A DNA stretch of 64,000 nucleotides from a virus. The translations under genes were made by a program, and so were the position numbers. The notes below the pieces were generated by a model. That model was not told the origin of the DNA, made no database searches, and saw only the letters and a list, made by a program, of their open reading frames with translations. Shown here one piece after another: positions 5,135 through 29,532 of the stretch; within the stretch, counting starts at the first letter, position 1, and each line of letters opens with the position of its first letter. The stretch lies in IMG/VR virus record IMGVR_UViG_3300046047_000262; one strand, written 5' to 3'.

Positions 5135-5496
5135 TGGAGCTGGCGGGAGTCGAACCCGCGTCTTGCATACATATCACTTCAAGGGAATTACAAGCTTCCT
5201 GTATCATAGGTCATTGTCGACTTTCATCGCCCATACAGTCGGATGGAAGCCTATTGGTTGATTGAACCATAACAGGTACGCAACCAAAACGTCCTGTTAA
5301 TCGTAATCCAGTGGCGTCGCGAACATGATTACAGGATTATGCTCTCATCATGTTCACGGATTACGCAGCTAGTGCGAAATCAGCGGTCTTTGAAGTGCCG
5401 TTTACTTGTATCATGCATCTTTTGTAAGGTAGTAGCATGATCCTCACCTTGCTTGCCCTGTTCAGTTATTGTACCAATCGATTGCCTTTCAGCCCC
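5135..5496 (-). ncRNA. ssrA: tmRNA
   Basis: 5' GGGGCTGAAAGG and 3' GACGCGGGTTCGACTCCCGCCAGCTCCA with G3.U; tag frame after AAGTAAAC reads GTSKTADFALAA*. Confidence 0.95.
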
Positions 5497-5543
5497 GATA
5501 GGATGATAATATCACATGATGATCATCATCGCAAGTTCAGTCG

Positions 5544-5822
5544 TTAAATGACCATATCGTTTTCTGTATTGCTTGGTGCATGTGCTGATAATGGTACGAA
5601 TGCAATACCACTGTACTTTTGTTCCAGTTTTTTCAGGAACGCACTTAATCCGTTCTCGAAGAACAGGTCCCTTGCTTCTGTATCATTGAATTCTATGACG
5701 AATGGACCAATATCATAAGCAATGTCATCACCACGCATCGCTTGGAGAATGACGCTTCGCGATTCATTGACCACGGCATCAGGATTGTCCTTCAGTAGGA
5801 ACATCGTAAAATCTTTACTCAT
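5544..5822 (-). CDS. Hypothetical protein
   Basis: 92-aa ORF with SD AGGAG. Confidence 0.6.
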   Translation of the reverse strand: MSKDFTMFLLKDNPDAVVNESRSVILQAMRGDDIAYDIGPFVIEFNDTEARDLFFENGLSAFLKKLEQKYSGIAFVPLSAHAPSNTENDMVI

Positions 5823-5928
5823 ATTATACTCCTTGAACTAGTGTAATCTACCTATGTCATTATACCTAATATAGTCGTGCCCGACATGTTAGCACTCATG
5901 TCGGGCACGATTTATATCAGATAATGCA

Positions 5929-7170
5929 TCATGAACGTTCCGTGTATGCGGTCTTTTTCTTATTCATGATATCGCTGATATCACCATGTTCAAGATCCCT
6001 GAAGAACATGTTTCGTTGTGGCTTCATGAACTGGTACGGACTGAACCCCAGTTTCTTAGCATTATCCTTAAGATTGTCTATGGTATAGTTGCGTTTCACA
6101 TTGGTTACTAAGCTAGGATCAATGTGATTCTCGCTCATGAGCTTTCGTGCTTTATCCTCATCAGCAAGCACCGCATTCGTTCTTGAAGTGTACGTTAGTA
6201 CTGGTTTGTCGAATGCATGTTCTTTTATCGCAGGATTCTTGTTCGTCTTGAAGAATTCGCCATCCTTATAATCCTCGGCTGCTTTTTTCTCTAATTGGAT
6301 AAGATCCTCGGTAAGGTGCTTCTTGATCATACCGACCTCACAGAACAACGCCCTTTTCTCAGCATCAGTACGTTCATCCAATGCTTCCTGAGTGTACCGT
6401 GGTTTCATGGCCCCATCCACGTCCTTATAGGTTTTCTTATTAGGATAATAAATGGTCGAGGACCCTAATACCCCATCCAATGAGATGTTGTTCTTATTGA
6501 ATACGTCCCTTATCTTAGCAGCAGAGATCGATTCAGTCGTATTCACGAATTCCTTGTCCTGAATGGAATTCTCATCAAGGTACTCTTGTAGCTTCTTGGA
6601 ATCTACGGTAGCCGATGATTCCATGACGAATGCACCTGTCTTATCATGGTTCAAGTATATGATATCCGAAGATATGTTGGAATCCTTGATGGTTGATTTC
6701 AGTAGATCGAAATCCGAGTCGACAGCATCCTTTGATGCGTAATACATCGCTAGTCGCGTCCTGTCATCAGTATCGCCGCTAGCAAGAAACTTCATACGTT
6801 CGAATGAGTCTCTGAGCTCATTAGTCTCCGCTCTTGTTTTCGCACTCTGCCTGATTGACTTCGCAGGGAAATCCTTATAATCAAGATTGGTCTTGACCCG
6901 TTTCGTCTTACTCGTAGTCATTGAATCCTTGACGATCTTCTGTAGATCGGGATCAATGTACTCATTCTGTACCACAGCGTTCAATAATGAGTTCTTAGCA
7001 AGGGATACCGATTTCGATTCTTTGACGTAATTGTTCTTGTACTTCTTTTCAAGATAGTCCTGGGCTTCTTCCTTAGTATCGAAATGTATACCGAATTTAC
7101 AACCCGTTTCCGTCTGAGCATCGCATTGCCTTGCTATTCCATCAGGACTGATATGGTATCTTCCCCTCAT
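5929..7170 (-). CDS. Hypothetical protein with N-terminal Cys/His motif
   Basis: 413-aa ORF with SD; N-terminus YHISPDG..RQCDA..TGCKFGIH. Confidence 0.75.
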   Translation of the reverse strand: MRGRYHISPDGIARQCDAQTETGCKFGIHFDTKEEAQDYLEKKYKNNYVKESKSVSLAKNSLLNAVVQNEYIDPDLQKIVKDSMTTSKTKRVKTNLDYKDFPAKSIRQSAKTRAETNELRDSFERMKFLASGDTDDRTRLAMYYASKDAVDSDFDLLKSTIKDSNISSDIIYLNHDKTGAFVMESSATVDSKKLQEYLDENSIQDKEFVNTTESISAAKIRDVFNKNNISLDGVLGSSTIYYPNKKTYKDVDGAMKPRYTQEALDERTDAEKRALFCEVGMIKKHLTEDLIQLEKKAAEDYKDGEFFKTNKNPAIKEHAFDKPVLTYTSRTNAVLADEDKARKLMSENHIDPSLVTNVKRNYTIDNLKDNAKKLGFSPYQFMKPQRNMFFRDLEHGDISDIMNKKKTAYTERS

Positions 7171-7239
7171 GTTAAACTCCTGTCTTCATGATGAATGGTA
7201 TAACAGGAATCTAACAAGCAGGTGTAATCATAGGTCTCT

Positions 7240-8064
7240 TTAATCCGCAGCTTTTACTTTGCTTTCCAAAGCATCAGCAAGATTATCCTGACTGAAATCA
7301 ATGCTCGATCCATTGACCAGAACAATAGGAGTGGCAAAACTACTGGAACCGGCCTTATACAGTTCCTTACGAGTAGTAGTCCAAGCAGTGAGTTTACTGA
7401 CATAATCAGCATACTTACCGTCAGTGATCTTACTGGCATTAGTCTTACCGATGCCGACAGTCCTTGCGAATGAACGAATCTTAGCATCAGACACGGGTTT
7501 GTAAGAAGGCCCCTCACCAGGGAACACGTTAGCACTGAATACATAGGATACATAACTCAGAAACGCATCAGGTTCAAGATCGCTCAAACGCCAAGCCGCT
7601 TCGGCCGCCCTGGTTGAGTAGTTATCTGTTGACATACTGTTCAAGAACGCTATAGGATGTACCCGCAGAATGATTTGCCCCTTGCTGAGCATGGTATTAT
7701 ACGTCGTACCAAGGGATTGTTCGGTACTTGAACACCCAGGGCAATTGAAATCAATGTAGATATCAACCTTGGGGACGCTCGTTTTCAAGTTATCGGGATT
7801 CTTCACGATACCTTCTTTATCAAAGACCAGTGCACCATCCTTTGAAGCATAAGTAGGTTTCGTCGTTACTTTTGAGAATGCGTCCTTAGCGTTGACTCCT
7901 TCGGCTTCCTTGCTCTTCTGAGCATGCCATATGCTTAATCCTGCGATAATCACTAATGCGACTACGATGATTGTGGTTATGACCCCTATGATCGTAGCCA
8001 TACGAGCGTTCTTAGCATCTATATCCATTGATGTTCTAGTATCATTAGCCATTATTATCTCCAA
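7240..8064 (-). CDS. Membrane-anchored DsbA-family thiol:disulfide oxidoreductase
   Basis: TM helix; DFNCPGC active site; STRAA; cis-Pro ATPIVLVNG. Confidence 0.85.
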   Translation of the reverse strand: MEIIMANDTRTSMDIDAKNARMATIIGVITTIIVVALVIIAGLSIWHAQKSKEAEGVNAKDAFSKVTTKPTYASKDGALVFDKEGIVKNPDNLKTSVPKVDIYIDFNCPGCSSTEQSLGTTYNTMLSKGQIILRVHPIAFLNSMSTDNYSTRAAEAAWRLSDLEPDAFLSYVSYVFSANVFPGEGPSYKPVSDAKIRSFARTVGIGKTNASKITDGKYADYVSKLTAWTTTRKELYKAGSSSFATPIVLVNGSSIDFSQDNLADALESKVKAAD

Positions 8065-8160
8065 TTAGTATAGTAAACCCTATTCAATGGTCATTATACC
8101 AAGAAACGGGGTGGTAACGATAGCAGATGAATCGTTACCACCCCGTATTGATTGTGGTTA

Positions 8161-8469
8161 TTAGTTCTTATGCAGGATCACATCCTTGACGTACCTGTAA
8201 GCTAGGATGACAAGGGTGATCAGTGCTACCAGTGCGAGAACACTGAACACGCCGCTCACAATCCATACTAGTATCTTGACGATAATGCCGATTGCACTGA
8301 ATGCGAGTTTGAGACCAGCGAGGCCACCGATGATAGCCAATGCAAGGAATGCCGCATTAACAGCAAGGATCTTGACGCTCTCCTTGTTCATTGCAGCCTT
8401 CGTTGCTATCGGTGCGAGTATGCCTGTCAGTATGATGCACATCACTATAGTGAGAATGCTTGATAACAT
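8161..8469 (-). CDS. Small membrane protein
   Basis: Hydrophobic 102-aa ORF with SD. Confidence 0.6.
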   Translation of the reverse strand: MLSSILTIVMCIILTGILAPIATKAAMNKESVKILAVNAAFLALAIIGGLAGLKLAFSAIGIIVKILVWIVSGVFSVLALVALITLVILAYRYVKDVILHKN

Positions 8470-8505
8470 GATCTTGTCCTTTCCTCGGATGAGGTTCTTT
8501 ACTTA

Positions 8506-8898
8506 TTATGAATTCAATATCTTGGTTATTATACCAACGTTACCCTGTGATGCAGCCATACCTGCTTCCACTAGGTCATGTTGAGAACATGAAACCGCAG
8601 CACCGTAAGTCTCCATGAACACTACAGCTGTAATAATCGCGGTTCTTTTATTGCCATCAGGGAAACAATGATCCTGTGCGATTCTACATGCGAGATGAGC
8701 AGCCTGGTCGGTAAGATCAGTAAACCGTTCAGGATGGAACGAAACGATACTGGCAAGGCATCCTTGTACCTTATCGTAGGTTCCATTGGGTACGACCGCA
8801 AGCCCATAAGTATTATCTATGGCTTTACCGTGTGCTGACATGACAACGGATGTCAACTCTGATAATGACTCCTCATTGAACAATACTGGTTTCAGCAT
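8506..8898 (-). CDS. Doc (death-on-curing) Fic-family toxin
   Basis: HCFPDGNKRTA, the Doc-type Fic motif. Confidence 0.85.
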   Translation of the reverse strand: MLKPVLFNEESLSELTSVVMSAHGKAIDNTYGLAVVPNGTYDKVQGCLASIVSFHPERFTDLTDQAAHLACRIAQDHCFPDGNKRTAIITAVVFMETYGAAVSCSQHDLVEAGMAASQGNVGIITKILNS

Positions 8899-8905
8899 GA
8901 TCGGC

Positions 8906-9406
8906 TCACTTTCCTGCTAGTTCGAGGATCGCCGGCGCGTAACGATCAAGAATCGTATTCATCGTGGCTTCCATGAGTCCAGCATCACATGGTTTGGCTT
9001 CGATGTATCTATCATGAGATGGCCTGTCATCATCCTCTGATGCGATGATGGTGACATGGATACCAGCAGATCGGGCTTTCTTGACGCAATCCCAGGTCCC
9101 CTTGGAACTCTTCATTGGAAAAGCCAAGCAAAGATCCGGTTTTTCAGCGATCATAATCCTATTACGCGTAGCCGATTCCGGATTGGTATCACGTCTGAAA
9201 TCATCAGGCATCCAATCAGATTCGAATACTCGACAGTGAACGTTATTGGTTTTAGCCCATGCTCTGGCACCTTCATCGGCTCCCGTGGAATCGCCTGTGA
9301 TGATCTCATCAACCTCGTTCTGATAACGATCAAGGATCGTCATCACATCGACCACGGGTCTGTACTTACTGCCAGCTACCAGTACCTTCATATTCTCCCT
9401 ATTCAT
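8906..9406 (-). CDS. SLOG-family (DUF2493/YspA-like) protein with antitoxin-like C-terminal tail
   Basis: KVLVAGS..IITGD.TGAD..A..WA..RN..M..AFP..SKGTWD; tail ATMNTILDRYAPAILELAGK. Confidence 0.75.
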   Translation of the reverse strand: MNRENMKVLVAGSKYRPVVDVMTILDRYQNEVDEIITGDSTGADEGARAWAKTNNVHCRVFESDWMPDDFRRDTNPESATRNRIMIAEKPDLCLAFPMKSSKGTWDCVKKARSAGIHVTIIASEDDDRPSHDRYIEAKPCDAGLMEATMNTILDRYAPAILELAGK

Positions 9407-9478
9407 GATAATGCTTCCGTTATGATACTTACATCATATCATGATAACGGAAGCAAGGCAATACGTTAGTACGAATTA

Positions 9479-9790
9479 TCATTCAGCGGTGAACAATGAT
9501 ACCAATTGTTCATCCGTGATCGTGTACGGGTCAATATCCCTGATGGTTCCCTTTTTCTCATTGGGTAGTTTCTTGTATGTAGCTCCGATGCCATCACCGA
9601 ATTCCATGGATGCGAACACGGTATCGTTCCTCGCATCAACCACCACGGTACCTGTTCTGGTAGTGAAGATACTCGGTTCAGGAAGCCCTGCTTTCTTCAT
9701 TCTCTTGGAAATGGATTTAGCCATGATGATGCCATCCTCAATGGATTGTTTCATCTCCTCTTCACTTCCCATAGCGTACTCGTTGCTCAT
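9479..9790 (-). CDS. Hypothetical protein
   Basis: 103-aa ORF with SD. Confidence 0.55.
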   Translation of the reverse strand: MSNEYAMGSEEEMKQSIEDGIIMAKSISKRMKKAGLPEPSIFTTRTGTVVVDARNDTVFASMEFGDGIGATYKKLPNEKKGTIRDIDPYTITDEQLVSLFTAE

Positions 9791-9823
9791 TTGATAGTTT
9801 CCTTTCCTGTCATGGAAAGAATA

Positions 9824-10615
9824 TCAGGATTGTACGATATCAATGTCCCGAACATCGTCGCCATATGATACCAGAGTATCCCCTGGATGGACCGTTAAGG
9901 GCGATTCTACGGCATCATCCTTGGTAAGGTTACTCATGTATACCGTTTCCCCGTAACGCCCGTTAGAGAGCATCCTATCATGTATAGTAGCCCATGCGTG
10001 CTCGATGGCATCCTTGTTGACATGCTTGCCTTCAAGCACGTATCGCCCTGTTATAGTCCCATGCTCATTCGTGATCCGATGATCACCGTATACCTTGGTG
10101 TCCCCATGTTGATGGGCTACGCTGATGGTCGCAGTATCACCATCATCACCATTGAATCGCATGCTGTACTCGTACCCATCAGTGATCACATGCGTCTGTC
10201 TCCATGATTGATCAAGTGCGTATCCCTTAGGTGATTGGATGTCGTACATGTATTGCTTGATAATACTATCAGCGTTCATTGCTGAGTATGACTGTTTGAA
10301 TTCCCTGTATTCTTTGGTGACATCGTACCTGTTCTGATGTTGTTGATCATTAACGGTTGATGGTTGAGTCTTGCGTAGTGAACCATGATTGGCATGCGTT
10401 TGGTTCTCTATGATTCTTTCATTCCAGGATTGAGCTTCGGCTTTTGTCATCATGACATGACTAGGTGCATCCTTACCTAGGAAATGACCGCCAGTATGCT
10501 TGCATCGTCCCTTGCCCCTGTTCTCAGGTTTAGCCGTGCATATAGTATATTGTCCATTAGGTTCGAGACCGTATCGTGATGCGGTTGCACCAGATCCCAG
10601 TGTGCCATTGTCCAT
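9824..10615 (-). CDS. Hypothetical protein with N-terminal Cys/His motif
   Basis: YGLEPNGQYTICTAKPENRGKGRCKH; SD AGGAG. Confidence 0.7.
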   Translation of the reverse strand: MDNGTLGSGATASRYGLEPNGQYTICTAKPENRGKGRCKHTGGHFLGKDAPSHVMMTKAEAQSWNERIIENQTHANHGSLRKTQPSTVNDQQHQNRYDVTKEYREFKQSYSAMNADSIIKQYMYDIQSPKGYALDQSWRQTHVITDGYEYSMRFNGDDGDTATISVAHQHGDTKVYGDHRITNEHGTITGRYVLEGKHVNKDAIEHAWATIHDRMLSNGRYGETVYMSNLTKDDAVESPLTVHPGDTLVSYGDDVRDIDIVQS

Positions 10616-10714
10616 GAGTCATCTCCTATCACGTTTTTCTACTCATGAATCTAACAAGAACGGACTCGACCCATAAGCTAAAAGGTCGAGTCCGTTCTTG
10701 TTTTTAAGCGTGTA

Positions 10715-10918
10715 TCACCGTTCCTCATGGAAACCGTCAGTAAACTCATGAAGGATACTGCCGATGCCCTTGACACCGTTCTTTGCTTTCCTGACGATTT
10801 TGGAATGTTTGCTTTCAGGTTTTAACCCGAGTTTCTTCCTTAGAACAAGCATATATACAGCGTAGGGCAGTCCTACTGTCAGCAGGACGATTCCAATGAT
10901 TCTTTTAATGGTGTTCAT
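10715..10918 (-). CDS. Small membrane protein
   Basis: TM helix; SD AAGGAG; terminator hairpin at about 10654-10704. Confidence 0.55.
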   Translation of the reverse strand: MNTIKRIIGIVLLTVGLPYAVYMLVLRKKLGLKPESKHSKIVRKAKNGVKGIGSILHEFTDGFHEER

Positions 10919-10976
10919 GCATACTCCTTCTCAATGGTTCCGTTGTCATCCATGATACCACTGATTACTATCACCG

Positions 10977-11342
10977 TCAATTCGTCGATCGATGGTTACG
11001 TGCATCCTGCTCTGCAAGTAAGCGTTCCGCAGCGGCTGCGATGGGGTCATCATTGTTATCATGGTGAGCATTCTGTGATTGATCATTGTTGATCTGAGGT
11101 TTCTTCAATACTACACTGAACGCGAGATCAATGATACCTAATACTATCACCGCCCAACCAGCATAACTGGTTCCCGTCAATGCGTTGACTGGACCATACA
11201 TACCGATCATCAGGAATCCAGTTGATTCGACAATGTGTTTCAGTGCCGGTCTATGATTCTCAGTGGATATGAATCCCATGGTGATATCGATACAAGCGAA
11301 AGCTACGGCAATGATAAGAATGATGATCTCTAATACGTTCAT
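10977..11342 (-). CDS. Membrane protein
   Basis: Three hydrophobic segments. Confidence 0.6.
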   Translation of the reverse strand: MNVLEIIILIIAVAFACIDITMGFISTENHRPALKHIVESTGFLMIGMYGPVNALTGTSYAGWAVIVLGIIDLAFSVVLKKPQINNDQSQNAHHDNNDDPIAAAAERLLAEQDARNHRSTN

Positions 11343-11351
11343 GATGGTATT

Positions 11352-11804
11352 TCAGTATCCTTTGATGACAGTGTTGATGGTTTTTGCTACGTCTTGTGAA
11401 TCGTCTATCTGAGAACTAGAGCATAACGCATTCACATGGTATGTCTTATGTGCCTGTACGTTCATGAAGTTCTGTACACATGTTCCCACATGTTCCCCTT
11501 GAGGGGATATAGCATCGGCGGATACTTGAAGATAGAAGTACTTCTTATTCGTGTTATTCGTCAAGGTTCCTTGTGCGTATGGTTGCAGACCGTAACCACT
11601 GTCCTCGGCTTTGATCTCACCGAGAACGGCCGAAGGATGAGAGTTCGATGCGGTTTTCACGCCGACATAATTCTGCATCATGCCGTACCCTGGTATACCA
11701 TAACCGAATACCGTCAATGATAATGCTATCACAGCCAGTACTCCTATGATAGATGCCATGATCTTCATGGGTAGGTTCATGATTACTCCTTCTTCGTGGT
11801 TCAA
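11352..11804 (-). CDS. Secreted FxLYD-domain-like protein
   Basis: Signal/TM segment; GTLTNNTNKKY.YLQV.....PQGEHVG pattern; true start probably the internal MNLPMK. Confidence 0.55.
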   Translation of the reverse strand: MNHEEGVIMNLPMKIMASIIGVLAVIALSLTVFGYGIPGYGMMQNYVGVKTASNSHPSAVLGEIKAEDSGYGLQPYAQGTLTNNTNKKYFYLQVSADAISPQGEHVGTCVQNFMNVQAHKTYHVNALCSSSQIDDSQDVAKTINTVIKGY

Positions 11805-11829
11805 TTACAATATCGTATAATGCTGGTTC

Positions 11830-12318
11830 TCATAATGATAATGGTACTGTCTTCCCGCTGTGATCATAAGGGTTCACCTGTATACCAGCATGATCGAGTA
11901 TTCTCATCGCGATCTCCATGTTCTTACCTGCACGGCTCTCCGCATAGATGATACGGCTCAATCCTACCTGTGCCATCTCCTTGGCACATTCGTAACAGGG
12001 GAATAAGGTCACGTACATGGTGGCACCACGGAAATCATTGATCGAACCACGGTAATTCAGTATGCAATTACGTTCAGCATGCACCACGTAAGCGTACTTC
12101 GTATCCGCTGGGTCATCGGACGCCTTGCCCCATGGCATGTCATCATCAGTGAATCCACTAGTGGTTCCATTATATCCTAATGACAACACCCTGTGATCGG
12201 CATTGACCAGCACGGCTCCAACTTGTGTTGACGGATCCTTGGATCTCATTGACGATAATTGGGCGAGACCCATAAAGGTCTCATCCCATGTCAGGTAATC
12301 CTCTCTGGCGAAGGTCAT
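11830..12318 (-). CDS. dCMP deaminase
   Basis: RSKDPSTQVGA, GYNG, HAERN and PCYEC zinc motifs. Confidence 0.92.
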   Translation of the reverse strand: MTFAREDYLTWDETFMGLAQLSSMRSKDPSTQVGAVLVNADHRVLSLGYNGTTSGFTDDDMPWGKASDDPADTKYAYVVHAERNCILNYRGSINDFRGATMYVTLFPCYECAKEMAQVGLSRIIYAESRAGKNMEIAMRILDHAGIQVNPYDHSGKTVPLSL

Positions 12319-12998
12319 CGGTTGTCATTCTCCTGTTCCGTGCTACGATTCCATATGATAGGCATCCAATACCCTATGTCATCATAATCATCATCGCAAC
12401 CCCATGAGTCCCTTGCAAGTTCCTGTACCAGATTCTCATCCTGATCCATGATGATCTTATTATCGTTCTCATAATCATCGGAAACAGCCAACGTGCGGCC
12501 ATCAGTCAAGGTGAACACGATATACCCGTCATGAGTATAATAGTCATTGCCGAACGCCTCTGTGTCAACATGAATCCTATCAGCAAGTTGCTTGACCAGT
12601 ACCCTAGTGAGTTCTTCCTGTTCGAGCTGCTCCCTATACTTTTCCATCGCGGCTGTATCCGTCCATAGTTCGTTATCAAGGCTTTCCTTGGAGATGTTCT
12701 CAATGGCATCATTGATGGCTGATCGTCCGTTATCGGTAATGCGTTCATGCATTACCGGCACATAGGTGATGCCAAGTAATCCATCATGGATCTCATCATA
12801 CTTATCGAACTTCTCGCACCATTTTTTCATGGCTCTTTTCGATAATTCATCGGCGACGGTGTTCGCATCATCAACATTATCGAACCATACGACGTTACCA
12901 TGTACTTTGACCGCGTGGTCTTCCGAACACAGTCTCGTGTAATCATCAGCATCAACCAGATGGGTTCTATGCAGAGTCCACCATCGTTCAGGCATCAT
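12315..12998 (-). CDS. Hypothetical protein
   Basis: 227-aa ORF overlapping the deaminase start by 4 nt. Confidence 0.65.
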   Translation of the reverse strand: MMPERWWTLHRTHLVDADDYTRLCSEDHAVKVHGNVVWFDNVDDANTVADELSKRAMKKWCEKFDKYDEIHDGLLGITYVPVMHERITDNGRSAINDAIENISKESLDNELWTDTAAMEKYREQLEQEELTRVLVKQLADRIHVDTEAFGNDYYTHDGYIVFTLTDGRTLAVSDDYENDNKIIMDQDENLVQELARDSWGCDDDYDDIGYWMPIIWNRSTEQENDNR

Positions 12999-13062
12999 TA
13001 GTAAGCCTCCCTTATCCCATTAAAAAACACCATGGCTATATAATACCATGATATGCGGATAA

Positions 13063-13590
13063 TCACCAAACAGGGTTGGTTTTGTTGACGCTGATGACAT
13101 TATCCTGTCTGATTCTAGGATAGCATACTTGTATCTCGTTAGTATGATCCACATTGAACACCCTATGCCATGTACTCATGCGTTCAATGTCGGACATGGC
13201 ATCACCATCATGCATCCATGATTCCTCGGATTGTCCTTCATAGGGGATCGGCATGTTGTTCAATAACATGATATCCCACAGATAGCCGTTGATAGGAACG
13301 CATTCCTCCTCGTCTATGTCCAACTCGATCAGATCCCCATTATCATGGAACATCGAGTATCGTCTATCGGGAATGGATTCGCGACCCATCCATTTTCGCC
13401 ATGCCCAGAGTGGCCATCGGCCTTGGAAAAGATCGGGTCGTGAATCGGTGACGTATGAGTATGCTCGTGAGAACATGGTCATGTCTCCCCATGTTGACAG
13501 GGTGCTGTCACAATGATACTCGCCTGTTCCCAGAATCTGATCATGTACGGCGTTCCATGGTTGGAACGTCCATATGGTCATGGTACTCAT
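13063..13590 (-). CDS. DUF3841-like protein
   Basis: IWTFQ...AYSY...PLWAW...LIELDI...W..VF...IQ pattern. Confidence 0.6.
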   Translation of the reverse strand: MSTMTIWTFQPWNAVHDQILGTGEYHCDSTLSTWGDMTMFSRAYSYVTDSRPDLFQGRWPLWAWRKWMGRESIPDRRYSMFHDNGDLIELDIDEEECVPINGYLWDIMLLNNMPIPYEGQSEESWMHDGDAMSDIERMSTWHRVFNVDHTNEIQVCYPRIRQDNVISVNKTNPVW

Positions 13591-13616
13591 GGTTGTATTG
13601 TCGTTATCGGTTGTTC

Positions 13617-13850
13617 CTAACGACCTGTTTCAATGGGTGTCATATGACGTAACGTTACGATTTCGATGATGCGACCATTGTTCTCAATCGTGAACGATGA
13701 ATCCTTGCGATTATGCGATACGTGACCAAGACGTTGCATAGCGTAATCCTGTGCGATGTTTAACGCTTCTTTCTTGATCTTCGCAGTACCGATGATCTTG
13801 ATGGTGCCGTCATTCCGATGTGCTTCAACGACGAAGCCGGATGATGCCAT
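13617..13850 (-). CDS. Hypothetical protein
   Basis: 77-aa ORF with SD GGAGG. Confidence 0.55.
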   Translation of the reverse strand: MASSGFVVEAHRNDGTIKIIGTAKIKKEALNIAQDYAMQRLGHVSHNRKDSSFTIENNGRIIEIVTLRHMTPIETGR

Positions 13851-13893
13851 TGTATCCTCCTTTTAATAGTCCTGATACTATTATATCACCATC

Positions 13894-15549
13894 CTAATGG
13901 TTCATGCGTTTATCGAAGAATGCGATGATATCATTTTTGAACGGTAGTAACGGCTGGTAATCGAATTGATGCTCATATTCACTGTCCGTTGCAAGGAAGG
14001 ATGAACTGTCATCAGCATGCTTCCAATGAAGATACAATTCACCAGCTCGTGCCAGGACTTCGGTTGGTGCGGTATACTTGTCATCACTCCCGCGGATGGC
14101 CGTTTTATCAAGGTTCTGCTGATAGGATTTGACGATAGGACGGAAATCAGGCGACATTGATTGCTGCATCCCATCCGTTCTGGAATTGTAATCCCAATGG
14201 TGAATGTACTCATGACCGAGTGCAGATGGGCTTCTCGGATCCACGGCAATGTTCTTCTTAGCAGGGGCGTATACTCCCAGTGCATGGTGTCGTCCTGTTT
14301 TACGGAATCTGAATGTAGCCTTATCATTGGTCTCGGGTAGCCATGTACGGAAGGTCTTCCACTCATTCTGGATCTTATTGAACTTGTCCAGATCGACGGA
14401 ATCATCTATCTCAATGTTATTGAAATCGTCTGCGAACGTACTGTTCTCACCTGCAAGCACATGCGATTCATCCCTGTTCTTCTTATCCTCGTATACGGTT
14501 GCCGAATGTGCACTGTTAGCACGTTTCGCGTATTCCCTGTTCAGCTCGCCGTTACGCTCGTCATCAAGAATGTTCGTGACTGCATCATAATAACGATGGT
14601 GTACATCCTCGTATTCATCTCTGACAAGATCCCTGTATGATGCTAACTGGTATCGAAGTTTGTAATCATTCTGAACATTCTCATCATTGAGCTTACCCTT
14701 GATCGCATCAAGGATCTCGCCCTTATTATTCCAGTCTTTGACGGAATCCTCTCCGATAAGTGTCTTCAGATTGTCTATACCCAGTCCATTGATCTTAGGT
14801 GTCTCTGATTCCGCTAGGTGGAATCCCACTGAACCACGTTCACGTGACATGAGACCGTTAGCTACCGTGGTCAGTGTTCGCCCACTGATGTTGGTCTTGT
14901 CCATCTCGTCGTAGATGGCTTTACCGGCCATGACCATGCCGAAATTCAGTGTTCTCAATTGTCGACGTGTTCCTCTGAAGGATACACCCGTGTTCAATAC
15001 CGATTTCGTTATCTTACCATTGCTGATGAATGATAGGACACCGGCATCATCTTCGAGAACAATGACGGGAGCGCCTGTTTTCCTTTCAAGGTAATCGCGG
15101 TAACGTTCAATGGTATTAACAAGATTATCGTCGTCACCAGTCCACTCATGCGTACTGGAACCGTATAGGGATTCAATGGCGGATGCCGCAGCGGATATAT
15201 CATCACCATTGAAGTTCTTATTGATATACGCACCAAGCTTATTGATCACACTGATCGCATCATCGGTGTCCTTGAGTTTCGGAACCGAACCCGTCCTCTC
15301 ATCATTCAAGGGTATCCTGTTAGTGAGTAGTGTGGTGATGCGTTCAGTGGTATCCGTGGCATCACCACGTTTCATTCCCGTTGTTGAACCGAGATGCTCA
15401 CTATTCCTCTGCTCGGCGACTTCAATCGCTTCTTGTTCAGTGGCGTAATGTTCTTTGAACGGGCACGGTTTTATTTCAGCATTGCATTTTCCAGGATTCC
15501 CGTCATCATTGATATGCCATAATCCTTTAGTACTGACCGTTCCCGCCAT
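13894..15549 (-). CDS. Polyvalent-type protein: N-terminal Cys/His motif plus C-terminal HExxH zincin/LPD1-like domain
   Basis: FRFRKTGRHHALGVY...HEYIHHWDY...PTEVLARAGE resembles LPD1/MPTase domains of plasmid and phage polyvalent proteins. Confidence 0.7.
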   Translation of the reverse strand: MAGTVSTKGLWHINDDGNPGKCNAEIKPCPFKEHYATEQEAIEVAEQRNSEHLGSTTGMKRGDATDTTERITTLLTNRIPLNDERTGSVPKLKDTDDAISVINKLGAYINKNFNGDDISAAASAIESLYGSSTHEWTGDDDNLVNTIERYRDYLERKTGAPVIVLEDDAGVLSFISNGKITKSVLNTGVSFRGTRRQLRTLNFGMVMAGKAIYDEMDKTNISGRTLTTVANGLMSRERGSVGFHLAESETPKINGLGIDNLKTLIGEDSVKDWNNKGEILDAIKGKLNDENVQNDYKLRYQLASYRDLVRDEYEDVHHRYYDAVTNILDDERNGELNREYAKRANSAHSATVYEDKKNRDESHVLAGENSTFADDFNNIEIDDSVDLDKFNKIQNEWKTFRTWLPETNDKATFRFRKTGRHHALGVYAPAKKNIAVDPRSPSALGHEYIHHWDYNSRTDGMQQSMSPDFRPIVKSYQQNLDKTAIRGSDDKYTAPTEVLARAGELYLHWKHADDSSSFLATDSEYEHQFDYQPLLPFKNDIIAFFDKRMNH

Positions 15550-15553
15550 GTTA

Positions 15554-15820
15554 TTAGCTCCTTAATAGTTCCAAATACTTTTTCAGATGATTCCTACCAT
15601 ATAGATCTATCAAGAAGCATTTGGCATTCTGCAGTTTCACTTGGTAATAAGGCACGCTGGAATCAGTTGGTACCGTAACATGTCTGGTATGAAAATGGAA
15701 ATCAGCACAGCCCCATTCCTCATACTTACCATCATCCTTTACCCTTTTCCAATCCAAGGCTTTAAGGAGTTCAATGAGATCATTCTTCGTTGGATTCTCA
15801 GCATCGAGATTAATTGACAT
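15554..15820 (-). CDS. Hypothetical protein (weakly HicA-like)
   Basis: Likely start MSINLD; LIELLKALDW...HVTVP. Confidence 0.45.
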   Translation of the reverse strand: MSINLDAENPTKNDLIELLKALDWKRVKDDGKYEEWGCADFHFHTRHVTVPTDSSVPYYQVKLQNAKCFLIDLYGRNHLKKYLELLRS

Positions 15821-15869
15821 GATATATAATATTCCCTTCTTATTGTGGTTAGTTGTACTACTATTGGTG

Positions 15870-16415
15870 TTATGCTTGGGACGAGACCATGGCGTGCTTC
15901 GACCAGTATATAATGGATCGCATATACTCATCCTTAGAATACGTACCTTGTGTTCCACCCTCAAGATGCAACTCGTTACGAGCCATAGTCAATGGGTGCA
16001 TGGGTATGCTCTCGTGATCAGGTGATGCGTTGATGGAGATAATCTCCCAATCAGCATCGGTTGATCTGTCATTGTCCTCATCAAGAACATCCGCACGGTA
16101 CAATACCACATTCACGGATCCCGCTGGTGTTTTCGCACGACCATTCACCGTGGTCACCATTGCTGGTTCCTCGGTAGGTGTACGACCTATGTATTCAGTA
16201 CGCAAGGAATCACCCGTATGTAATTCCACGATGGCCGAGTAGAATCCTTGTGGTGGCACTGGAACCAGAACGACGCCATCCCTGTATCCAGGTGTACGCT
16301 CATCGAAATGGGAGCGTACCAGTTCCTCTAATTCCTCCCAAGTCCATTCCCAGTATGAGAATCTTGATTCCTTGGTCTGTCTTTTCACAAAACAACTACA
16401 TGATATGGTGTTCAA
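15870..16415 (-). CDS. DUF3228-family protein
   Basis: Y.GRTPTEEP...VVLY...WEIISINA...PMHPLTMARN...EGG. Confidence 0.65.
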   Translation of the reverse strand: MNTISCSCFVKRQTKESRFSYWEWTWEELEELVRSHFDERTPGYRDGVVLVPVPPQGFYSAIVELHTGDSLRTEYIGRTPTEEPAMVTTVNGRAKTPAGSVNVVLYRADVLDEDNDRSTDADWEIISINASPDHESIPMHPLTMARNELHLEGGTQGTYSKDEYMRSIIYWSKHAMVSSQA

Positions 16416-17146
16416 ATCCGCTCCTTTATGGTAAACATGTCGGCAGTGAGGAATCCTGCTGACTTCGCCTGTTCTATGGTACCACTACTGTCCACATGCA
16501 TACAAACAATACGATGACGCCAATCTCTAGGCAGTGCCTTCAATTCATCAAGTGATACATGAACAGGACTGTATGATCCTGAGCAATCCACGTATACTCA
16601 TAATACCTTCGCCGAACTCTTCATCAGATCGATCACATGGTTAAGGCTTTTAGTATCGCCAGTGTAGAGTATCATACCCTCGGGTCTATATAACTCTATA
16701 CTGTAACTAGGAATCTCCTCAACATGTACCGTGGGTGTGTAGACCAATGTCAGCAGCGGGTCAGCGAACTCGTTCCATCTTCCCCTGCGGTCGGCTGTCT
16801 CCATGGAGTACGCATGCATGGGCACCCCCTGAGCATTGAGTATCGTCTGGATGAGTTTCCATTCCTTATTATTAGCACATACTATTCGTGGTTTGATATG
16901 TCGTTCGAACCATGATGACATGATCAGTGATGCCAGACCACTAATGTGATCCCCATGAGTGTGGGTGATGAGTATGGTAATCCCAGCATGTTGTTTCCAT
17001 GATGGTAGCGCATGTACGGTGGTGAATGTCGTACCACCGCAATCGAACAAGATGATATCGCCGTTCTTATCCCTGAGCATCGCGGAATTATTACCTAATT
17101 CAGGGGCGATACCACTACCGTATCCAAGGAACTCCAGATCAAACAT
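16412..17146 (-). pseudogene. MBL-fold metallohydrolase (RNase Z/ElaC-like superfamily) interrupted by an in-frame TGA at 16598-16600
   Basis: DCGG, THTHGDHISG, HVEE, YTGDT; after the TGA the same frame continues VYVDCS...VHVSLDEL...IVCMHVD...AKSAGF to a stop at 16412. Confidence 0.75.
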
Positions 17147-17291
17147 GAGTTATTCCTTCCGCATTGATGGATAACAGTTCCAGTTCCGTATCAGTGAGAG
17201 CATCGGGATTGATATGCTTTCGTGTCATGAGCTCTTCCAAGCGATCAGGATTAGAGTATCCCATATCAGTGAGTCTCCAATGAATCTCCAT
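17139..17291 (-). CDS. Small hypothetical protein (50 aa)
   Basis: SD GGAGG; stop overlaps the start of the MBL gene. Confidence 0.45.
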   Translation of the reverse strand: MEIHWRLTDMGYSNPDRLEELMTRKHINPDALTDTELELLSINAEGITHV

Positions 17292-17439: not shown

Positions 17440-17468
17440 ATTATACCAGGTTATTCGTGTATCGTCAA
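17440..17468 (-). promoter_or_regulatory. Sigma70-type promoter driving a short terminated RNA
   Basis: TTGACG-17 bp-TATAAT with TG extension; terminator at about 17351-17385. Confidence 0.7.
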
Positions 17469-17505
17469 CTTGTAATCAAAAGGTTGACTACTAGCAAGAA
17501 TGCAC

Positions 17506-17546
17506 GAAAAATACCCCCGATGATCTATGATAATCATCGGGGGTAA
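17506..17546 (-). terminator. Terminator closing the tRNA array
   Basis: TACCCCCGATGAT...ATCATCGGGGGTA followed by TTTTT, right after the last tRNA. Confidence 0.8.
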
Positions 17547-17549
17547 TAG

Positions 17550-17625
17550 TGCTTGCTATCTGATTCGAACAGATGATCTCCTCCGCGTAAAGGAGGCGCT
17601 TTAGGCCAAACTGAGCTAAGCAAGC
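17550..17625 (-). tRNA. tRNA-Val(TAC)
   Basis: Cloverleaf; CCTCC-TTTACGC-GGAGG. Confidence 0.85.
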
Positions 17626-17631
17626 ATGAAG

Positions 17632-17702
17632 TACACCTGAAAGGAATCGAACCTTCATCGTCTGTGAGTCATACAGGTATTCTACCATTGAATTACAGGT
17701 GC
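17632..17702 (-). tRNA. tRNA-Val(GAC), atypical anticodon loop
   Basis: Cloverleaf; loop ATGACTC. Confidence 0.6.
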
Positions 17703-17704
17703 GG

Positions 17705-17777
17705 AGCCATCTGTCAGGGTCGAACTGACTACCTGCTCTTTACTAGAGAGCTGCTCTACCAGGTGAGCTAAGATGGC
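17705..17777 (-). tRNA. tRNA-Thr(AGT)
   Basis: GCTCT-CTAGTAA-AGAGC. Confidence 0.9.
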
Positions 17778-17784
17778 ATAATGA

Positions 17785-18258
17785 TCACCGACATAATGCT
17801 TCCAATGTAAGACAGCGTTGCATCAGCATGCCGCGTCTACGTTCAGTATTATGCAGGTTTCGTTTATCTTCTTCAGGTAGGTAATCGAAGGAATCAGGGT
17901 TCCAATCTATCCATGCTTCCATTGATGCCCGAATATCACGTACAAGTTCAGAACCCAACCTTTTCAAACACGAATCATCAACGAACAGGATCAGTTCACT
18001 GTCAACAATCGTATCGTGGTTATCATTCAAGGCATACAATGAATGATTGAACTCAACAATGCCCACATGATAACCTTCAGCTTCCAGATCGATCATCAGA
18101 GCGGATGATTTCCCATGGCGATCAAGTCGTTTTATGAATGCATCCAATGCGATCATGGGAACATCATCCATATAACTGACGGGACCAATATCCTTACCGT
18201 CAATACTCAGGAATGACCATCCTGCTTCAGGTTCACTAAGCATAATACTCCTTTTCAA
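17785..18258 (-). CDS. Hypothetical protein inside the tRNA array
   Basis: 157-aa ORF with SD AAGGAG before the internal ATG. Confidence 0.65.
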   Translation of the reverse strand: MKRSIMLSEPEAGWSFLSIDGKDIGPVSYMDDVPMIALDAFIKRLDRHGKSSALMIDLEAEGYHVGIVEFNHSLYALNDNHDTIVDSELILFVDDSCLKRLGSELVRDIRASMEAWIDWNPDSFDYLPEEDKRNLHNTERRRGMLMQRCLTLEALCR

Positions 18259-18295
18259 TCATGATAATCACATGATTATTCTACCATGAATTAGG

Positions 18296-18615
18296 TGAAG
18301 TAGAATCGTAGCCAGAGTTCTGTTATGAGTATCATCCATCTTATCTCCCTACCTGCTATCATCAGGCGAGCAACCCTCAGCGTTATGGGATTTCATCGGG
18401 ACCGGCTTGCCAAGGTGCCTGTTGCCAGGTTTAACCCATAGGTGCTTACGCTATGCTTTTCATCCTTACCTGTGATCCATTTAAGTATCCATCGGCGGTA
18501 TGGTCTCTGTGGTGCTATCGCTATCCTCACGGATGGTGGTCTAACCCACGTCCCTGCTCTATGATGCCCTGAACTTCCTCTGATCGATTGATCAGCGATA
18601 CTCCATTCTACTTCA
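18296..18615 (-). ncRNA. rnpB: RNase P RNA (bacterial type, divergent and compact)
   Basis: P1 TGAAGTAGAAT/ATTCTACTTCA; CR-I GAGGAAGTTCAGGGC; AGCACCACAGAGA; GGATGAAAA; GGTTAAAC; AGATGGATGA; CR-V ACAGAACTCTGGCTA. Confidence 0.9.
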
Positions 18616-18695
18616 TGTATACGACCCGTTGACATCATGGTTCCACTGCTTGCTTTCGCACCTGATGGGATAACCATGTCGTCAACGCCCGTACG

Positions 18696-18768
18696 AGCCC
18701 CTAACAGGAATCGAACCTGTGACCTTCTCATTACGAGTGAGACGCTCTACCGACTGAGCTATGGGGGC
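18696..18768 (-). tRNA. tRNA-Thr(CGT)
   Basis: Loop CTCGTAA. Confidence 0.93.
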
Positions 18769-19206: not shown

Positions 19207-19253
19207 AATGATTACATGATACCATGTTCCGCCGATGATGTCAATATGAATCG

Positions 19254-20472: not shown

Positions 20473-20549
20473 GTGCGGGAGAGGGATTTGAACCCCCAAC
20501 AACATGCTTATGAGGCACGAGAGCTACCGAGTTGCTGCTTGATCCCGCG
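20473..20549 (-). tRNA. tRNA-Met(CAT), initiator-like body
   Basis: 5' CGCGGG with C1xA72 mismatch; T loop TTCAAAT; loop CTCATAA. Confidence 0.75.
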
Positions 20550-21904: not shown

Positions 21905-21977
21905 TGAATGACATGGGATTCGAACCCATGATCTCTTACATTACCGTAAGCGCTCCTACCAATTGAGCTTCCATTCA
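21905..21977 (-). tRNA. Degenerate tRNA with 6-nt anticodon loop
   Basis: Intact D and T arms; CTTAC-GGTAAT-GTAAG. Confidence 0.55.
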
Positions 21978-22292: not shown

Positions 22293-22365
22293 TGGATACA
22301 TGAGGGATTCGAACCCTCACCTTCTCCGTGCAAAGGAGATGTGCTACCATTGACACTAATGACCA
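22293..22365 (-). tRNA. tRNA-Ala(TGC), imperfect acceptor stem
   Basis: Loop TTTGCAC. Confidence 0.7.
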
Positions 22366-22872: not shown

Positions 22873-22947
22873 TGCCGTTGTAGGATTCGAACCAACGATC
22901 TTCTGATTCGGGAGGTCAGATGCTCTATCCAATTGAGCTATAACGGC
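22873..22947 (-). tRNA. tRNA-Arg-type body with 9-nt anticodon loop
   Basis: TCTGA-CCTCCCGAA-TCAGA; D loop matches the other Arg tRNAs. Confidence 0.75.
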
Positions 22948-23732: not shown

Positions 23733-23803
23733 TGTCTTAAGAGAATTATGATATCTCGCATACTTGCTTCTATCCAAGTGCTCTTCCTCTGAGCTATTAA
23801 GAC
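23733..23803 (-). tRNA. Lys-family tRNA derivative with 8-nt anticodon loop
   Basis: Same D arm and ATCATAA T loop as the Lys tRNAs; loop GATAGAAG. Confidence 0.55.
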
Positions 23804-23888
23804 ATTTTCAGTCGGATGGATCGTCAATCCATCGTTACGGTTGTTCCTACCGTGGTCTTATATAATGACTTTAGCCTACGACTGAACG

Positions 23889-24051: not shown

Positions 24052-24262
24052 ATTAATGGCGGCTTTCCCGCTAGCACGATGTTCTCATCGAACGAGCAAC
24101 GACATTGTACGGGCATAACAACCTGAGTTGATTAAGTTAATAACCACTTGAGCCAGGTTGACCTTGAGGCGACTGTTGCCATACCCCTCGTAGTCTCACG
24201 AGGAATCGAACCTCGTCGTTTGATGGAACCTCAGGAATACTACCAATTGAGACCATTTTAGA

Positions 24263-24959: not shown

Positions 24960-25343
24960 ATATGATTCTGGTGGGACTGGTGTACCTATCTAGGGTCATA
25001 GACCAATAGGTACGCGAATCCTGATCACCAGCAAGTAATGCGGATGATTGCCTGCCGTGGCTACAGCAGTCATCACGTCTAGCGAGCCGTGCGTCATGTT
25101 TCCATCACGTATATGACCGTTTCAACGATTGCGTGGAGCGGCACGGATTCGAACCGTGCTTCGGGTATAGGTTCGAATGAATCCACCCCGCATTTCTGGC
25201 TCGGGATAACCAATCCCAAGCACTATTGAACCAATATGATGACCAGCAGAATGGTTAACCTCTACTATTCACCATCAAACACCCCTATCACATGATCCTG
25301 TCACCATTCACATGTAAGCATACGGAATATAACCATATACCAG

Positions 25344-25996: not shown

Positions 25997-26055
25997 ATTC
26001 ATAGTATTCCGAAACATGTAATCACGTATTGGAATGTTAATATGGAAAAGATTAG

Positions 26056-26125
26056 TGCCCCATCCGGGAATCGAACCCGGTTCTGACCCTCCACGGGCCT
26101 GTTCTAACCAGTGTCACTAATGGGT
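26056..26125 (-). tRNA. Degenerate tRNA with 5-nt anticodon loop
   Basis: Perfect T arm; GGCCC-GTGGA-GGGTC. Confidence 0.5.
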
Positions 26126-26633: not shown

Positions 26634-26704
26634 TACGCCCACCAGGAATCGAACCCAAGTCAAGAGGTTTGGAAGCTCTTGTGTTACCACTACACCATAG
26701 GCGT
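26634..26704 (-). tRNA. tRNA-Trp(CCA)
   Basis: Loop TTCCAAA with a 31-39 mismatch. Confidence 0.85.
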
Positions 26705-26968: not shown

Positions 26969-27040
26969 TGCCTCAGGAGAATTATGATATCTCGACCCTC
27001 TGTTTAAGAGACAGATGCTCTTCCTCTGAGCTACTAAGGC
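26969..27040 (-). tRNA. tRNA-Lys(CTT), non-canonical T loop
   Basis: Loop CTCTTAA; T loop ATCATAA. Confidence 0.85.
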
Positions 27041-27041
27041 G

Positions 27042-27718: not shown

Positions 27719-27790
27719 TGCCCCCGGAGAATTACGATATCTCGACACGCGGATTAAAAGTCCGCTGCTCTTCCTCTGAGCTACAAGGGC
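27719..27790 (-). tRNA. tRNA-Lys(TTT), non-canonical T loop
   Basis: Loop CTTTTAA; T loop ATCGTAA. Confidence 0.85.
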
Positions 27791-28008: not shown

Positions 28009-28018
28009 CATGTCATCG

Positions 28019-28423: not shown

Positions 28424-28494
28424 TGCTCCCACGGGGAATCGAACCCCGATTTACTGATTAAGAGTCAGCAGTTCTACCGTTGAACTATAGAAGC
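28424..28494 (-). tRNA. tRNA-Lys(CTT)
   Basis: Loop CTCTTAA. Confidence 0.92.
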
Positions 28495-28695
28495 AAAAAC
28501 CCGTATGACCCTTTGAGGGTAACTCACTCTCAAACTAGAATGGGTCATACGGGAAAATCACCAAACAAAGGAGAAGGATCGAACCTTTCCTAGCAAAAAC
28601 CGTATGACCGTTTGAGGACAACTCGCTCTCAAACTGGAAATGGGTCATATGGTAAATAATACGCTAACAAAGGAGTACTGTGCCTTGCCCTAGCA
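28493..28695. repeat. Two tandem diverged copies of a ~100-nt structured unit
   Basis: Each copy: GCAAAAAC-CGTATGACC-TTTGAG..CTCTCAAACT..GGGTCATAYGG..ACAAAGGAG..CCTAG. Confidence 0.8.
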
Positions 28696-28736
28696 TACCA
28701 AACCGCATATGCTTCTGCCGTATTGCTACGACATAG

Positions 28737-28807
28737 CTCCCCGAGAAAGAATCGAACTTTCATTAAATGATTAACAGTCATCCGTTCTGCCCTTGAACTA
28801 CCGGGGA
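28737..28807 (-). tRNA. tRNA-Asn(GTT)
   Basis: Loop CTGTTAA. Confidence 0.92.
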
Positions 28808-29310
28808 ATAAAGATGCCGGTGATAACGCTCACCGGCGGGCGGCATGGTTGATACCTTGATGAGATCATGCTGTTCTCATCATTGGTCAGGATCATTCGT
28901 CCTGATTGGTCAGCTCTCATGCCATCATGATGACTGGTATGATTGCGTATGTGATTCATCTGAAGAAACTTTTTTAATGACTACGGGCCGTCAGTGTTTC
29001 ATGAATGACGTTGGTGTCCCGCTCATGGGTTATCATCGCGTGCTCGGAATACAATGTAATCCTCGTCAGGTGTTGCCACCATCGGTTGTAAGGGCGATGT
29101 CTTCCCCATGCTCGATCCTGTGTTCAGGCGCTCCGTCACGTGCTCACATGGTGACCAAACACGATAATTCTTTAACATTCCGGTATCGTGACCGTCGCAT
29201 ACATCTCCCGCAGTAATGAACTGCCATCCTCGTTAAGTTATGTGACCATCCTATCGTGACTTGCCTTGGTTGTCAACCTCGGCGTGTCGCGATGACCTCG
29301 ATGATCATCG

Positions 29311-29384
29311 TCGGCTATGTCAGATTCGAACTGACGGTCTCCTGCTCCCAAAGCAGGCGGATTACCAAGCTTTCCTAATAGCCG
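29311..29384 (-). tRNA. tRNA-Pro(TGG)
   Basis: Loop TTTGGGA; C1-G72. Confidence 0.92.
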
Positions 29385-29460
29385 TTATCTTTTCAATTTT
29401 TGTTTCCGATGAACCAGTGTATCATAATCTTTCGATTACGCAACATCGGCGTGTCGGTCG

Positions 29461-29532
29461 TCGGAATGGACTGGTTCGAACAGTCGTTCTCCTGCACCCG
29501 AAGCAGGCGGATTACCACTTTCCTACATCCCG
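29461..29532 (-). tRNA. tRNA-Pro(CGG)
   Basis: Loop TTCGGGT. Confidence 0.92.

Follow-up and report, generated by a model that had tools for sequence, protein, structure and literature searches.

RNase P RNA, SRP RNA and tmRNA beside a full tRNA set on a plasmid-like replicon: a candidate second set of translation RNAs

The RNA of ribonuclease P (RNase P) and that of the signal recognition particle (SRP) are treated as core cellular genes, and it may be asked why a mobile element should carry them. This question is raised by a stretch of 64,000 nucleotides (the window, throughout this text) of IMG/VR record IMGVR_UViG_3300046047_000262, whose source contig is 170,763 bp long. An earlier note on this DNA had described a plasmid-type replicon with about 54 transfer RNA (tRNA) genes for all 20 amino acids, an RNase P RNA inside the tRNA array, a transfer-messenger RNA (tmRNA) and an RNase Z-like gene, and had proposed that the element replaces host RNAs destroyed by nucleases. 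ARAGORN and Rfam, run as it had advised, recovered the array, the RNase P RNA and the tmRNA, and the Rfam scan added a small SRP RNA that the note lacked; the RNase Z-like gene turned out to be something else. What sets the element apart is that a near-complete RNase P RNA, a full SRP RNA, a tmRNA and tRNAs for all 20 amino acids occur together on a plasmid-type replicon, and do so as the trait of a plasmid-like family of 170-440 kb in which RNase P RNA and SRP RNA have moved sideways without their proteins.

The RNase P RNA lies inside the array, as had been claimed, and aligns with the full type A model (Table 1). It retains helices P1-P17, including P13/P14, both pseudoknots (P4 and P6), the specificity domain (S-domain) with its T-loop motifs and the GGU of L15. 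P18 is absent, in the window and in the orthologue from relative G006 alike, and is also missing from some cellular RNase P RNAs (PMC8172020). Helix P4 reads AGU-U-CAGGG with CUCUG-GCU, against AAG-U-CCGGG with CCCGG-CUU in the Rfam consensus; the pairs beside the bulge are thus G-C and U-G instead of A-U and G-C, none of the eight pairs is lost, and the bulged U, described as binding a catalytic metal (PMC11143913), is kept. The relative G006 is a 419,707-bp contig with direct terminal repeats, syntenic with 22 of the 36 window open reading frames (ORFs) queried against its regions, and its RNase P RNA (148.4 bits) has the same P4 variant and is identical to that of the window at 236 of 327 positions (72%). 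Among 90 helix positions compared between these two sequences, with helix registers set by hand from the Rfam alignments, 57 are unchanged, 23 have changed on both sides with pairing kept in all 23, nine have changed on one side (six still pair, three are lost) and one is a mismatch in the window. The double changes are located in P1, P2, P4, P5, P6 (two), P9, P10 and P13-P17. Judged by this covariation, the fold is under purifying selection. The RNA is probably catalytically active.

The SRP (4.5S) RNA is wedged directly between tRNA-Thr(CGU) and the RNase P RNA. Its Rfam score is marginal, and it forms a full-length long hairpin with the symmetric helix-8 loop UCAGG/AGCAG, an asymmetric loop and a GAAA tetraloop, a fold with z = -3.47 that none of 200 shuffles equalled. 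The tmRNA, found by both programs, lies outside the array, 12 kb away from it; its tRNA-like ends are present, its 3' CCA is not fully encoded, and its tag GTSKTADFALAA is open and ends in ALAA, with a syntenic orthologue in G006 whose tag is AAYNTSDFALAA. One explanation that these structures bear upon is that the RNAs are decoys, which would sequester host RnpA, Ffh and SmpB, or absorb nucleases, but not carry out their normal job. The missing P18, the changes of P4 at positions fixed in the Rfam consensus and the state of many virus copies, which are cut down and in the case of some SRP copies consist only of helix-8 stubs, would suit such a role, but it appears unlikely for the window, where the RNase P RNA retains its S-domain, both pseudoknots, the bulged U, the L15 GGU and the 23 compensated pairs, the SRP RNA is full length and the tmRNA tag is open to its ALAA end.

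Around these RNAs, ARAGORN finds 51 tRNA genes for 20 amino acids, all on the minus strand, and Rfam finds 50 tRNAs over its cut-off, three of them (26969-27040, 22299-22361 and 21905-21976) missed by ARAGORN; an extra initiator-like gene (20476-20546) stays under the Rfam cut-off at 26.9 bits. The total of 54-55 genes in 12.0 kb, close to the figure first given, is to be compared with the minimum of at least 20 genes at a density of at least 2 per kb by which a tRNA array unit has been defined (PMC4758250). At the 55 gene ends, three of which may be off by one base, CCA is encoded in 3, and the discriminator base is followed by C in 53 and by CG in 31, in agreement with the earlier observation that most tRNAs lack CCA and many are followed by CG. 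Anticodon stems are fully paired in 46 of 51 tRNAs. The anticodon loops hold C33 in 6 of 51 tRNAs in the window and 8 of 49 in G006, versus 0-3 in each of four other relatives described below, and anticodons beginning with A34 occur for Thr (AGU, twice), Ala (AGC), Leu (AAG) and Arg (ACG). In cells U33 hardly ever varies, and bacteria seldom have A34 outside Arg.

At the 3' end of the array the order is tRNA-Arg, Glu, Leu and Thr, SRP RNA, RNase P RNA, a 157-codon ORF, tRNA-Thr, Val and Val, and a terminator-like hairpin, the whole block lying downstream of the best promoter-like site. Such sites are consensus matches only: overall the window has 35, versus 27.0 +- 5.2 in shuffles, and neither promoter nor terminator counts exceed those of shuffled sequence. 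The ORF in this block was considered as a substitute for RnpA and rejected, being acidic, without a Pfam family and present in one of nine records.

Several oddities of the array may be recorded here, all on the minus strand. Fifteen T-arm motifs lie outside annotated tRNAs between 20060 and 28600, and shrunken or odd tRNA-like folds occur at 23738-23810 (with an 8-base loop), 26050-26125, 24190-24260 and 25135-25190. Lys-type tRNAs with the non-standard T-loop AUCGUAA or AUCAUAA are found at 27719-27790, 26969-27040 and 23738-23810. The gene at 22873-22947 is called Gly(CCC), yet its body is of the Arg type and its anticodon loop has 9 bases, and the array holds no plain Arg(CCG) gene. In the tRNA-Trp(CCA) at 26634-26704 the lowest position of the anticodon stem is a C-C mismatch, and U11 pairs with A24.

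The family was traced through the type IV coupling protein, for which 167 relatives were obtained at E 1e-30 or better; a 27-sequence alignment then gave nine strong loci on eight IMG/VR contigs, five of which (G006 among them) were searched whole. These five relatives, all near-complete, measure 310-438 kb, have a GC content of 34-52% and bear terminal repeats in four cases, and the replicase of the window is shared by G006 alone. Each has 44-66 tRNA matches, mostly without CCA, and a tmRNA, whereas SRP RNA is found in three and RNase P RNA in two, all three RNAs being together in G009. All five encode a VirB4-like ATPase, and a CCA-adding enzyme, not seen in the window, is present in or beside the array of four, so that 3' maturation is better explained by this enzyme than by an RNase Z. 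Of the partner proteins for which the earlier note had proposed a search, together with cca, RnpA was found neither in the five relatives nor in four RNase P-bearing virus records, and SmpB in none of the five; the Ffh M-domain was likewise absent from all five. Of three ribonucleoproteins, the family thus brings the RNA components and probably depends on the host for the proteins. Three further observations concern individual relatives. In G009 the RNase P RNA at 167306-167563 (L311) is shorter and its P4 is of a third kind (ACU-U with GGU); an SRP RNA lies 1 kb away. The coupling protein gene of G009 occurs twice, inverted, near both ends (L299/L300), a sign of long inverted repeats at the termini or of a mirrored assembly. 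In the array of G002 (L333, L334), ARAGORN calls one tRNA with the stop-reading anticodon UUA.

The distribution of such RNAs beyond the family was followed through P4. Relaxed scans of IMG/VR at spacings of 163-193 and 225-255 gave 45 and 59 loci, and 77 of the 88 distinct matches are fully paired, compared with 13.5 +- 3.1 when partners are shuffled, kinship among the sequences not being down-weighted. The P4 variant of the window accounts for 35 of these 77, with at least five tRNAs within 6 kb in 25 of the 35, and the consensus P4 for 32, with at least five tRNAs in 24. A 15-base P4 scan produced 119 loci, mostly chance, five of them RNase P-like. One narrow pattern for the SRP helix-8 hairpin placed it inside tRNA arrays at 5 of 51 virus loci. 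When the variant P4 was sought in 185,579 GTDB genomes at a spacing of 228-258, which leaves longer cellular RNAs outside, 11 matches were obtained; by eye, seven are due to chance and four are RNase P-like, all on small contigs of metagenome-assembled genomes.

The near absence of this P4 variant from cellular genomes at the spacing scanned indicates that there was no recent capture from a host, which bears on the explanation that the RNAs are passive cargo, acquired where the element integrated (at tRNA, ssrA or ffs genes) and by now in decay. This explanation would account for the 15 orphan T-arm motifs, the degenerate tRNA-like pieces between genes and an interrupted gene next to the array, and phages are known to use ffs for attachment (PMC12540744). 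It is nevertheless extremely improbable, given compensatory evolution of the RNase P RNA across 28% divergence, the paired anticodon stems and the rarity of the P4 variant in cellular genomes at that spacing.

Named plasmids and phages extend the picture in part. A canonical RNase P RNA query matched 20 of 72,556 PLSDB records, mostly megabase secondary replicons and three of 176-509 kb; rnpB on a plasmid-labelled replicon is therefore not unprecedented in databases. BLASTN with the RNase P/SRP stretch of the window gave no match among the 72,556 plasmids and none among 50,697 phages, and the G006 RNase P orthologue likewise none among plasmids. Six cultured actinobacterial megaplasmids, chosen by similarity of their dUTPase or coupling protein and including pCPAA3, had no RNase P or SRP RNA match under stricter filters, and the coupling protein itself matched in only three of the six; no cultured carrier was thus found. 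A metagenome scan gave four loci of one sequence beside a tmRNA, rejected as not belonging to this element. Apart from these searches, a 12-kb stretch of a 203-kb virus record (G001; L144/L266) holds 43 tRNAs, a tmRNA, an SRP-like hairpin and an RNase P-like RNA, a GOLLD RNA shares its tRNA array with a short RNase P-like RNA at L018:5505-5964, and two cultured Microbacterium phages (H128 and H129) match the 5' P4 region of an RNase P RNA query over about 40 bases of unannotated DNA and are possible carriers.

The nature of the replicon decides whether these RNAs are out of place, since the element could instead be a jumbo phage or a piece of a chromosome or chromid, where such genes would be ordinary. 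The relatives do come from IMG/VR, a virus collection; two of four tested virus contigs with the variant P4 encode a terminase; and the PLSDB matches are mostly large secondary replicons. The window itself, as first described, encodes a plasmid replicase, a coupling protein and a CpaF-type ATPase, and head, portal and terminase families are absent from 53 ORFs scanned against PHROGs, one transglycosylase also matching a tape-measure family through a shared domain. No ribosomal protein was found among 58 ORFs and no ribosomal RNA (rRNA) in the Rfam scan of the window, and all five relatives are without 16S rRNA and without a terminase over the cut-off of three Pfam families (one weak match has E 0.002). 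With a Micrococcus- and Kocuria-like replicase and VirB4-like ATPases throughout the relatives, a phage or chromosomal origin is very unlikely. The available sequence thus supports the view that the window is part of a plasmid-like replicon with Rep, coupling protein and CpaF, VirB4 being known from the relatives only; there is no relaxase among the Pfam matches of the window, though no search aimed at relaxases or oriT was made. The host is probably an actinobacterium, because the best plasmid matches of the replicase are Micrococcus and Kocuria plasmids, the best matches of the transglycosylase are Streptomyces phages and many top dUTPase matches are Curtobacterium and Arthrobacter megaplasmids; the matches of a cation-efflux gene point to no clear host, and GyrA has no close relative in IMG/VR. 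With regard to assembly, independent contigs match 1879-18750 and 29108-48500, each as a single contig with zero differences, although one of the runs may be the source of the window itself. Within each of two runs, these contigs and the replicase contig have equal depth (13-14 and 44-46). The two main runs with matching contigs are bioreactor sludge metagenomes, and no RNA sequencing run was listed among those with a match.

Table 1. Features of the window, in order of position
Feature	Position	Strand	Basis or remark
Plasmid replicase, C-terminal helix-turn-helix	3..1757	-	PF03090, 42.7 bits, cut-off 26; runs off window
tmRNA	5132..5496	-	RF00023, 71.1 bits, cut-off 47; ARAGORN 5134-5496
Apyc1-like metallo-beta-lactamase-fold phosphodiesterase gene, interrupted	16412..17146	-	in-frame TGA at 16598-16600
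Terminator-like hairpin, 14 pairs, U tail	17512..17545	-	4 bases past last tRNA
tRNA array, 54-55 genes, all 20 amino acids	17549..29532	-	union of ARAGORN and Rfam
Acidic protein of 152-157 amino acids, no Pfam family	17785..18258	-	inside array; adjoins the RNase P gene, as it does in G006
RNase P RNA, type A fold	18293..18614	-	RF00010, 156.1 bits, cut-off 100, full model 1-367
Small SRP (4.5S) RNA, about 85 nt	18613..18697	-	RF00169, 40.8 bits, cut-off 40 (marginal)
Promoter-like site, 11/12, extended -10	19216..19244	-	best site; upstream of Arg/Glu/Leu/Thr-SRP-RNase P-ORF-Thr/Val/Val block; consensus match only
Promoter-like site, 11/12, extended -10	29876..29903	-	head of array
DnaX, NAD-dependent ligase, sigma-70-family factor and GyrA block	29973..38691	-	syntenic with G006
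Type IV coupling protein (TraD/VirD4-like)	46739..49228	-	marker for finding relatives
TadA/CpaF/VirB11-type ATPase	49267..50400	-	family match

The gene next to the array had been called RNase Z-like. Its 182-codon ORF matches the first half of the RNase Z models only, at 61-63 bits against cut-offs of 252-293, even when read through its stop, and the tRNA-binding arm is not matched, for which reasons the assignment was rejected. The frame continues for 61 codons past the TGA, and with X at that codon the product, 244 residues long, can be aligned over its whole length with 7FCT (E 7e-23); its best solved relatives (7FCT, 7T28, 7U2R and 7U2S), Apyc1 structures among them, align across the stop. 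PF23023 is matched over model positions 5-224 at 43.8 bits, against a cut-off of 50, and the G006 orthologue is intact at 258 amino acids. As far as these alignments go, the interrupted gene is an Apyc1-like phosphodiesterase and not a tRNA 3' nuclease. The TGA is present in two assemblies. A general recoding of TGA was rejected, since TGA ends 31 of 52 window ORFs and is therefore a normal stop, and read-through by tRNA-Trp is a weak option because the aligned residue in G006 is not Trp. Ahead of this gene, at 17346-17468 on the minus strand, a strong promoter-like site (11/12) stands upstream of a hairpin and a terminator-like stem, both inside the next 90 bases, possibly a small RNA or an attenuator.

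Other genes of the window include a pilin, TopA, HU, a dUTPase and a dCMP deaminase. A toxin gene of the Doc/Fic family, scoring above the TIGR01550 cut-off, lies at 8506-8898 (minus strand), with a SLOG-family ORF ahead of it. Five unrelated ORFs, the DNA ligase included (5929-7170, 9824-10615, 13894-15549, 31278-33467 and 34560-35234, all minus), share a similar short N-terminal module, aromatic-His-Ile...G...C-x-A...C...H, which has no Pfam match and is possibly a metal-binding targeting tag.

What, then, might the RNAs do? On these data we give an even chance to the explanation that the array RNAs load host RnpA, Ffh and SmpB, mature the tRNAs of the element and stand in for host RNAs that nucleases have cut. 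Transcription of the array would yield a few long precursors, starting from the promoter-like sites 29903, 29276 and 19244 and ending at terminator position 17545. Together with host RnpA, the RNase P RNA of the element would cut the 5' leaders of tRNA, SRP RNA and tmRNA precursors, adding to the RNase P of the host; RNase P is reported also to mature 4.5S RNA and tmRNA precursors (PMC11143913). The 3' ends of tRNAs would be trimmed to the encoded C74 and completed by a CCA enzyme, which four of the five relatives encode. Divergent sequences, such as the variant P4 and the C33 and A34 anticodon loops, may escape nucleases tuned to host RNAs, and the element's RNAs could then keep translation, ribosome rescue and membrane targeting going when the stable RNAs of the host are cut. 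It has been reported that phage tRNAs rescue infection from tRNA nucleases (PMC11555353), and evasion of nucleases through loop changes has been proposed for them (PMC10264068). A back-up role against nucleases is plausible, being favoured by the family pattern of RNA without protein; the Apyc1-like gene, of a counter-defence type, adjoins the array and can be counted in its favour. Since tRNA processing needs no SRP RNA, self-processing alone does not explain the set of RNAs.

The same RNAs may simply provide extra capacity, without any attack, if tRNA precursors overload host RNase P, membrane and pilus proteins load the SRP and the element's own tRNAs free it from host codon bias, the RNAs then raising dosage. 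For this possible, though less probable, alternative it can be said that the RNase P RNA sits within the array that it could process, in the window and in G006, that all 20 amino acids are covered and the relatives span 34-52% GC, and that the tRNAs of the megaplasmid pMP7017 have been read as codon adaptation (PMC10832533). Dosage of a ribonucleoprotein should, however, favour carrying its protein too, and RnpA, SmpB and Ffh are absent from all five relatives.

Several points nevertheless weigh against the back-up role. The compensated pairs come from two sequences with hand-set registers. Deletion of P18 from the Escherichia coli RNase P RNA is reported to slow its rate more than 3000-fold in vitro (PMC11143913), and pairing with the L15 GGU would be partial, because most precursors lack C75. 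RNase P RNA is missing from three relatives and SRP RNA from two, so neither is essential to the family. The remaining 107 kb of the source contig, outside the window, could hold partner proteins, and the Apyc1-like gene is interrupted in the window. The authors of the pMP7017 study favour codon adaptation as the role of its tRNAs.

Taken further, and only tentatively, it may be proposed that a mobile RNase P lineage with a rewired catalytic helix is maintained, together with SRP RNA and tmRNA, in giant conjugative elements and large phages; these RNAs would replace host rnpB, ffs and ssrA through hybrid particles with host proteins and thus form a transferable second RNA set, making the cell insensitive to RNA-cutting immunity or toxins. 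The idea of tRNA counter-defence would thereby be extended to other stable RNAs of translation, with the prediction that some defence or toxin nucleases target these RNAs. In the variant P4 of 35 distinct virus sequences, nature has in effect varied the catalytic helix of an ancient ribozyme, and the near-complete window copy should be well suited to assay. RNase P RNA serves as a check of genome completeness (PMC8172020); rnpB or ffs on a contig is no proof of a chromosome.

In relation to known systems, a tRNA array with a tmRNA on an actinobacterial megaplasmid is already established by pMP7017, a 190-kb conjugative megaplasmid of Bifidobacterium breve, whose transcribed array has 20 tRNAs and whose tmRNA lies between replicase and array (PMC10832533). 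The window differs in its 54-55 tRNAs for 20 amino acids and in its RNase P and SRP RNAs, the main text of PMC10832533 naming neither RNase P, rnpB nor SRP; the likeness described here is one of gene content, and pMP7017 is not among the PLSDB matches of the window. Mycobacterial plasmids and phages have tRNA array units (PMC12803027, PMC5966550 and PMC4758250) that similarly hold at least 20 tRNAs at a density of at least 2 per kb, cover 19-20 amino acids and have been assigned a proposed anti-defence role; the present array is larger and has three further RNAs, and the main text of PMC12803027 is without RNase P. Huge phages and large putative plasmids (PMC7162821) likewise have many tRNAs, tmRNA and CCA enzyme, but include SmpB carriers, in contrast to none of the five relatives here, and RNase P and SRP RNA do not occur in the main text. 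The Inocles, giant oral extrachromosomal elements of 250-370 kb (PMC12340149), also have DNA polymerase III parts, gyrase, a sigma factor and tRNAs of their own; they differ in host and GC content, their main text is without tmRNA, RNase P or non-coding RNA, and they are likened here by description only. A full-text literature search found no report of plasmid- or phage-encoded RNase P RNA or SRP RNA, within a scope of main texts that left subscription papers mostly outside; the supplementary tables of PMC7162821 may bear on this. With bacterial type A rnpB (RF00010) the window copy shares P1-P17, the pseudoknots, the bulged U, the L15 GGU and the T-loop motifs, and differs from the cellular gene in lacking P18, in its P4 variant and in being mobile, inside a tRNA array and without rnpA. 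The SRP RNA of about 85 nt, which lies on a mobile element without ffh and is fused between a tRNA and an RNase P RNA, shares with cellular ffs (RF00169) the long hairpin, the helix-8 loops and the GNRA tetraloop.

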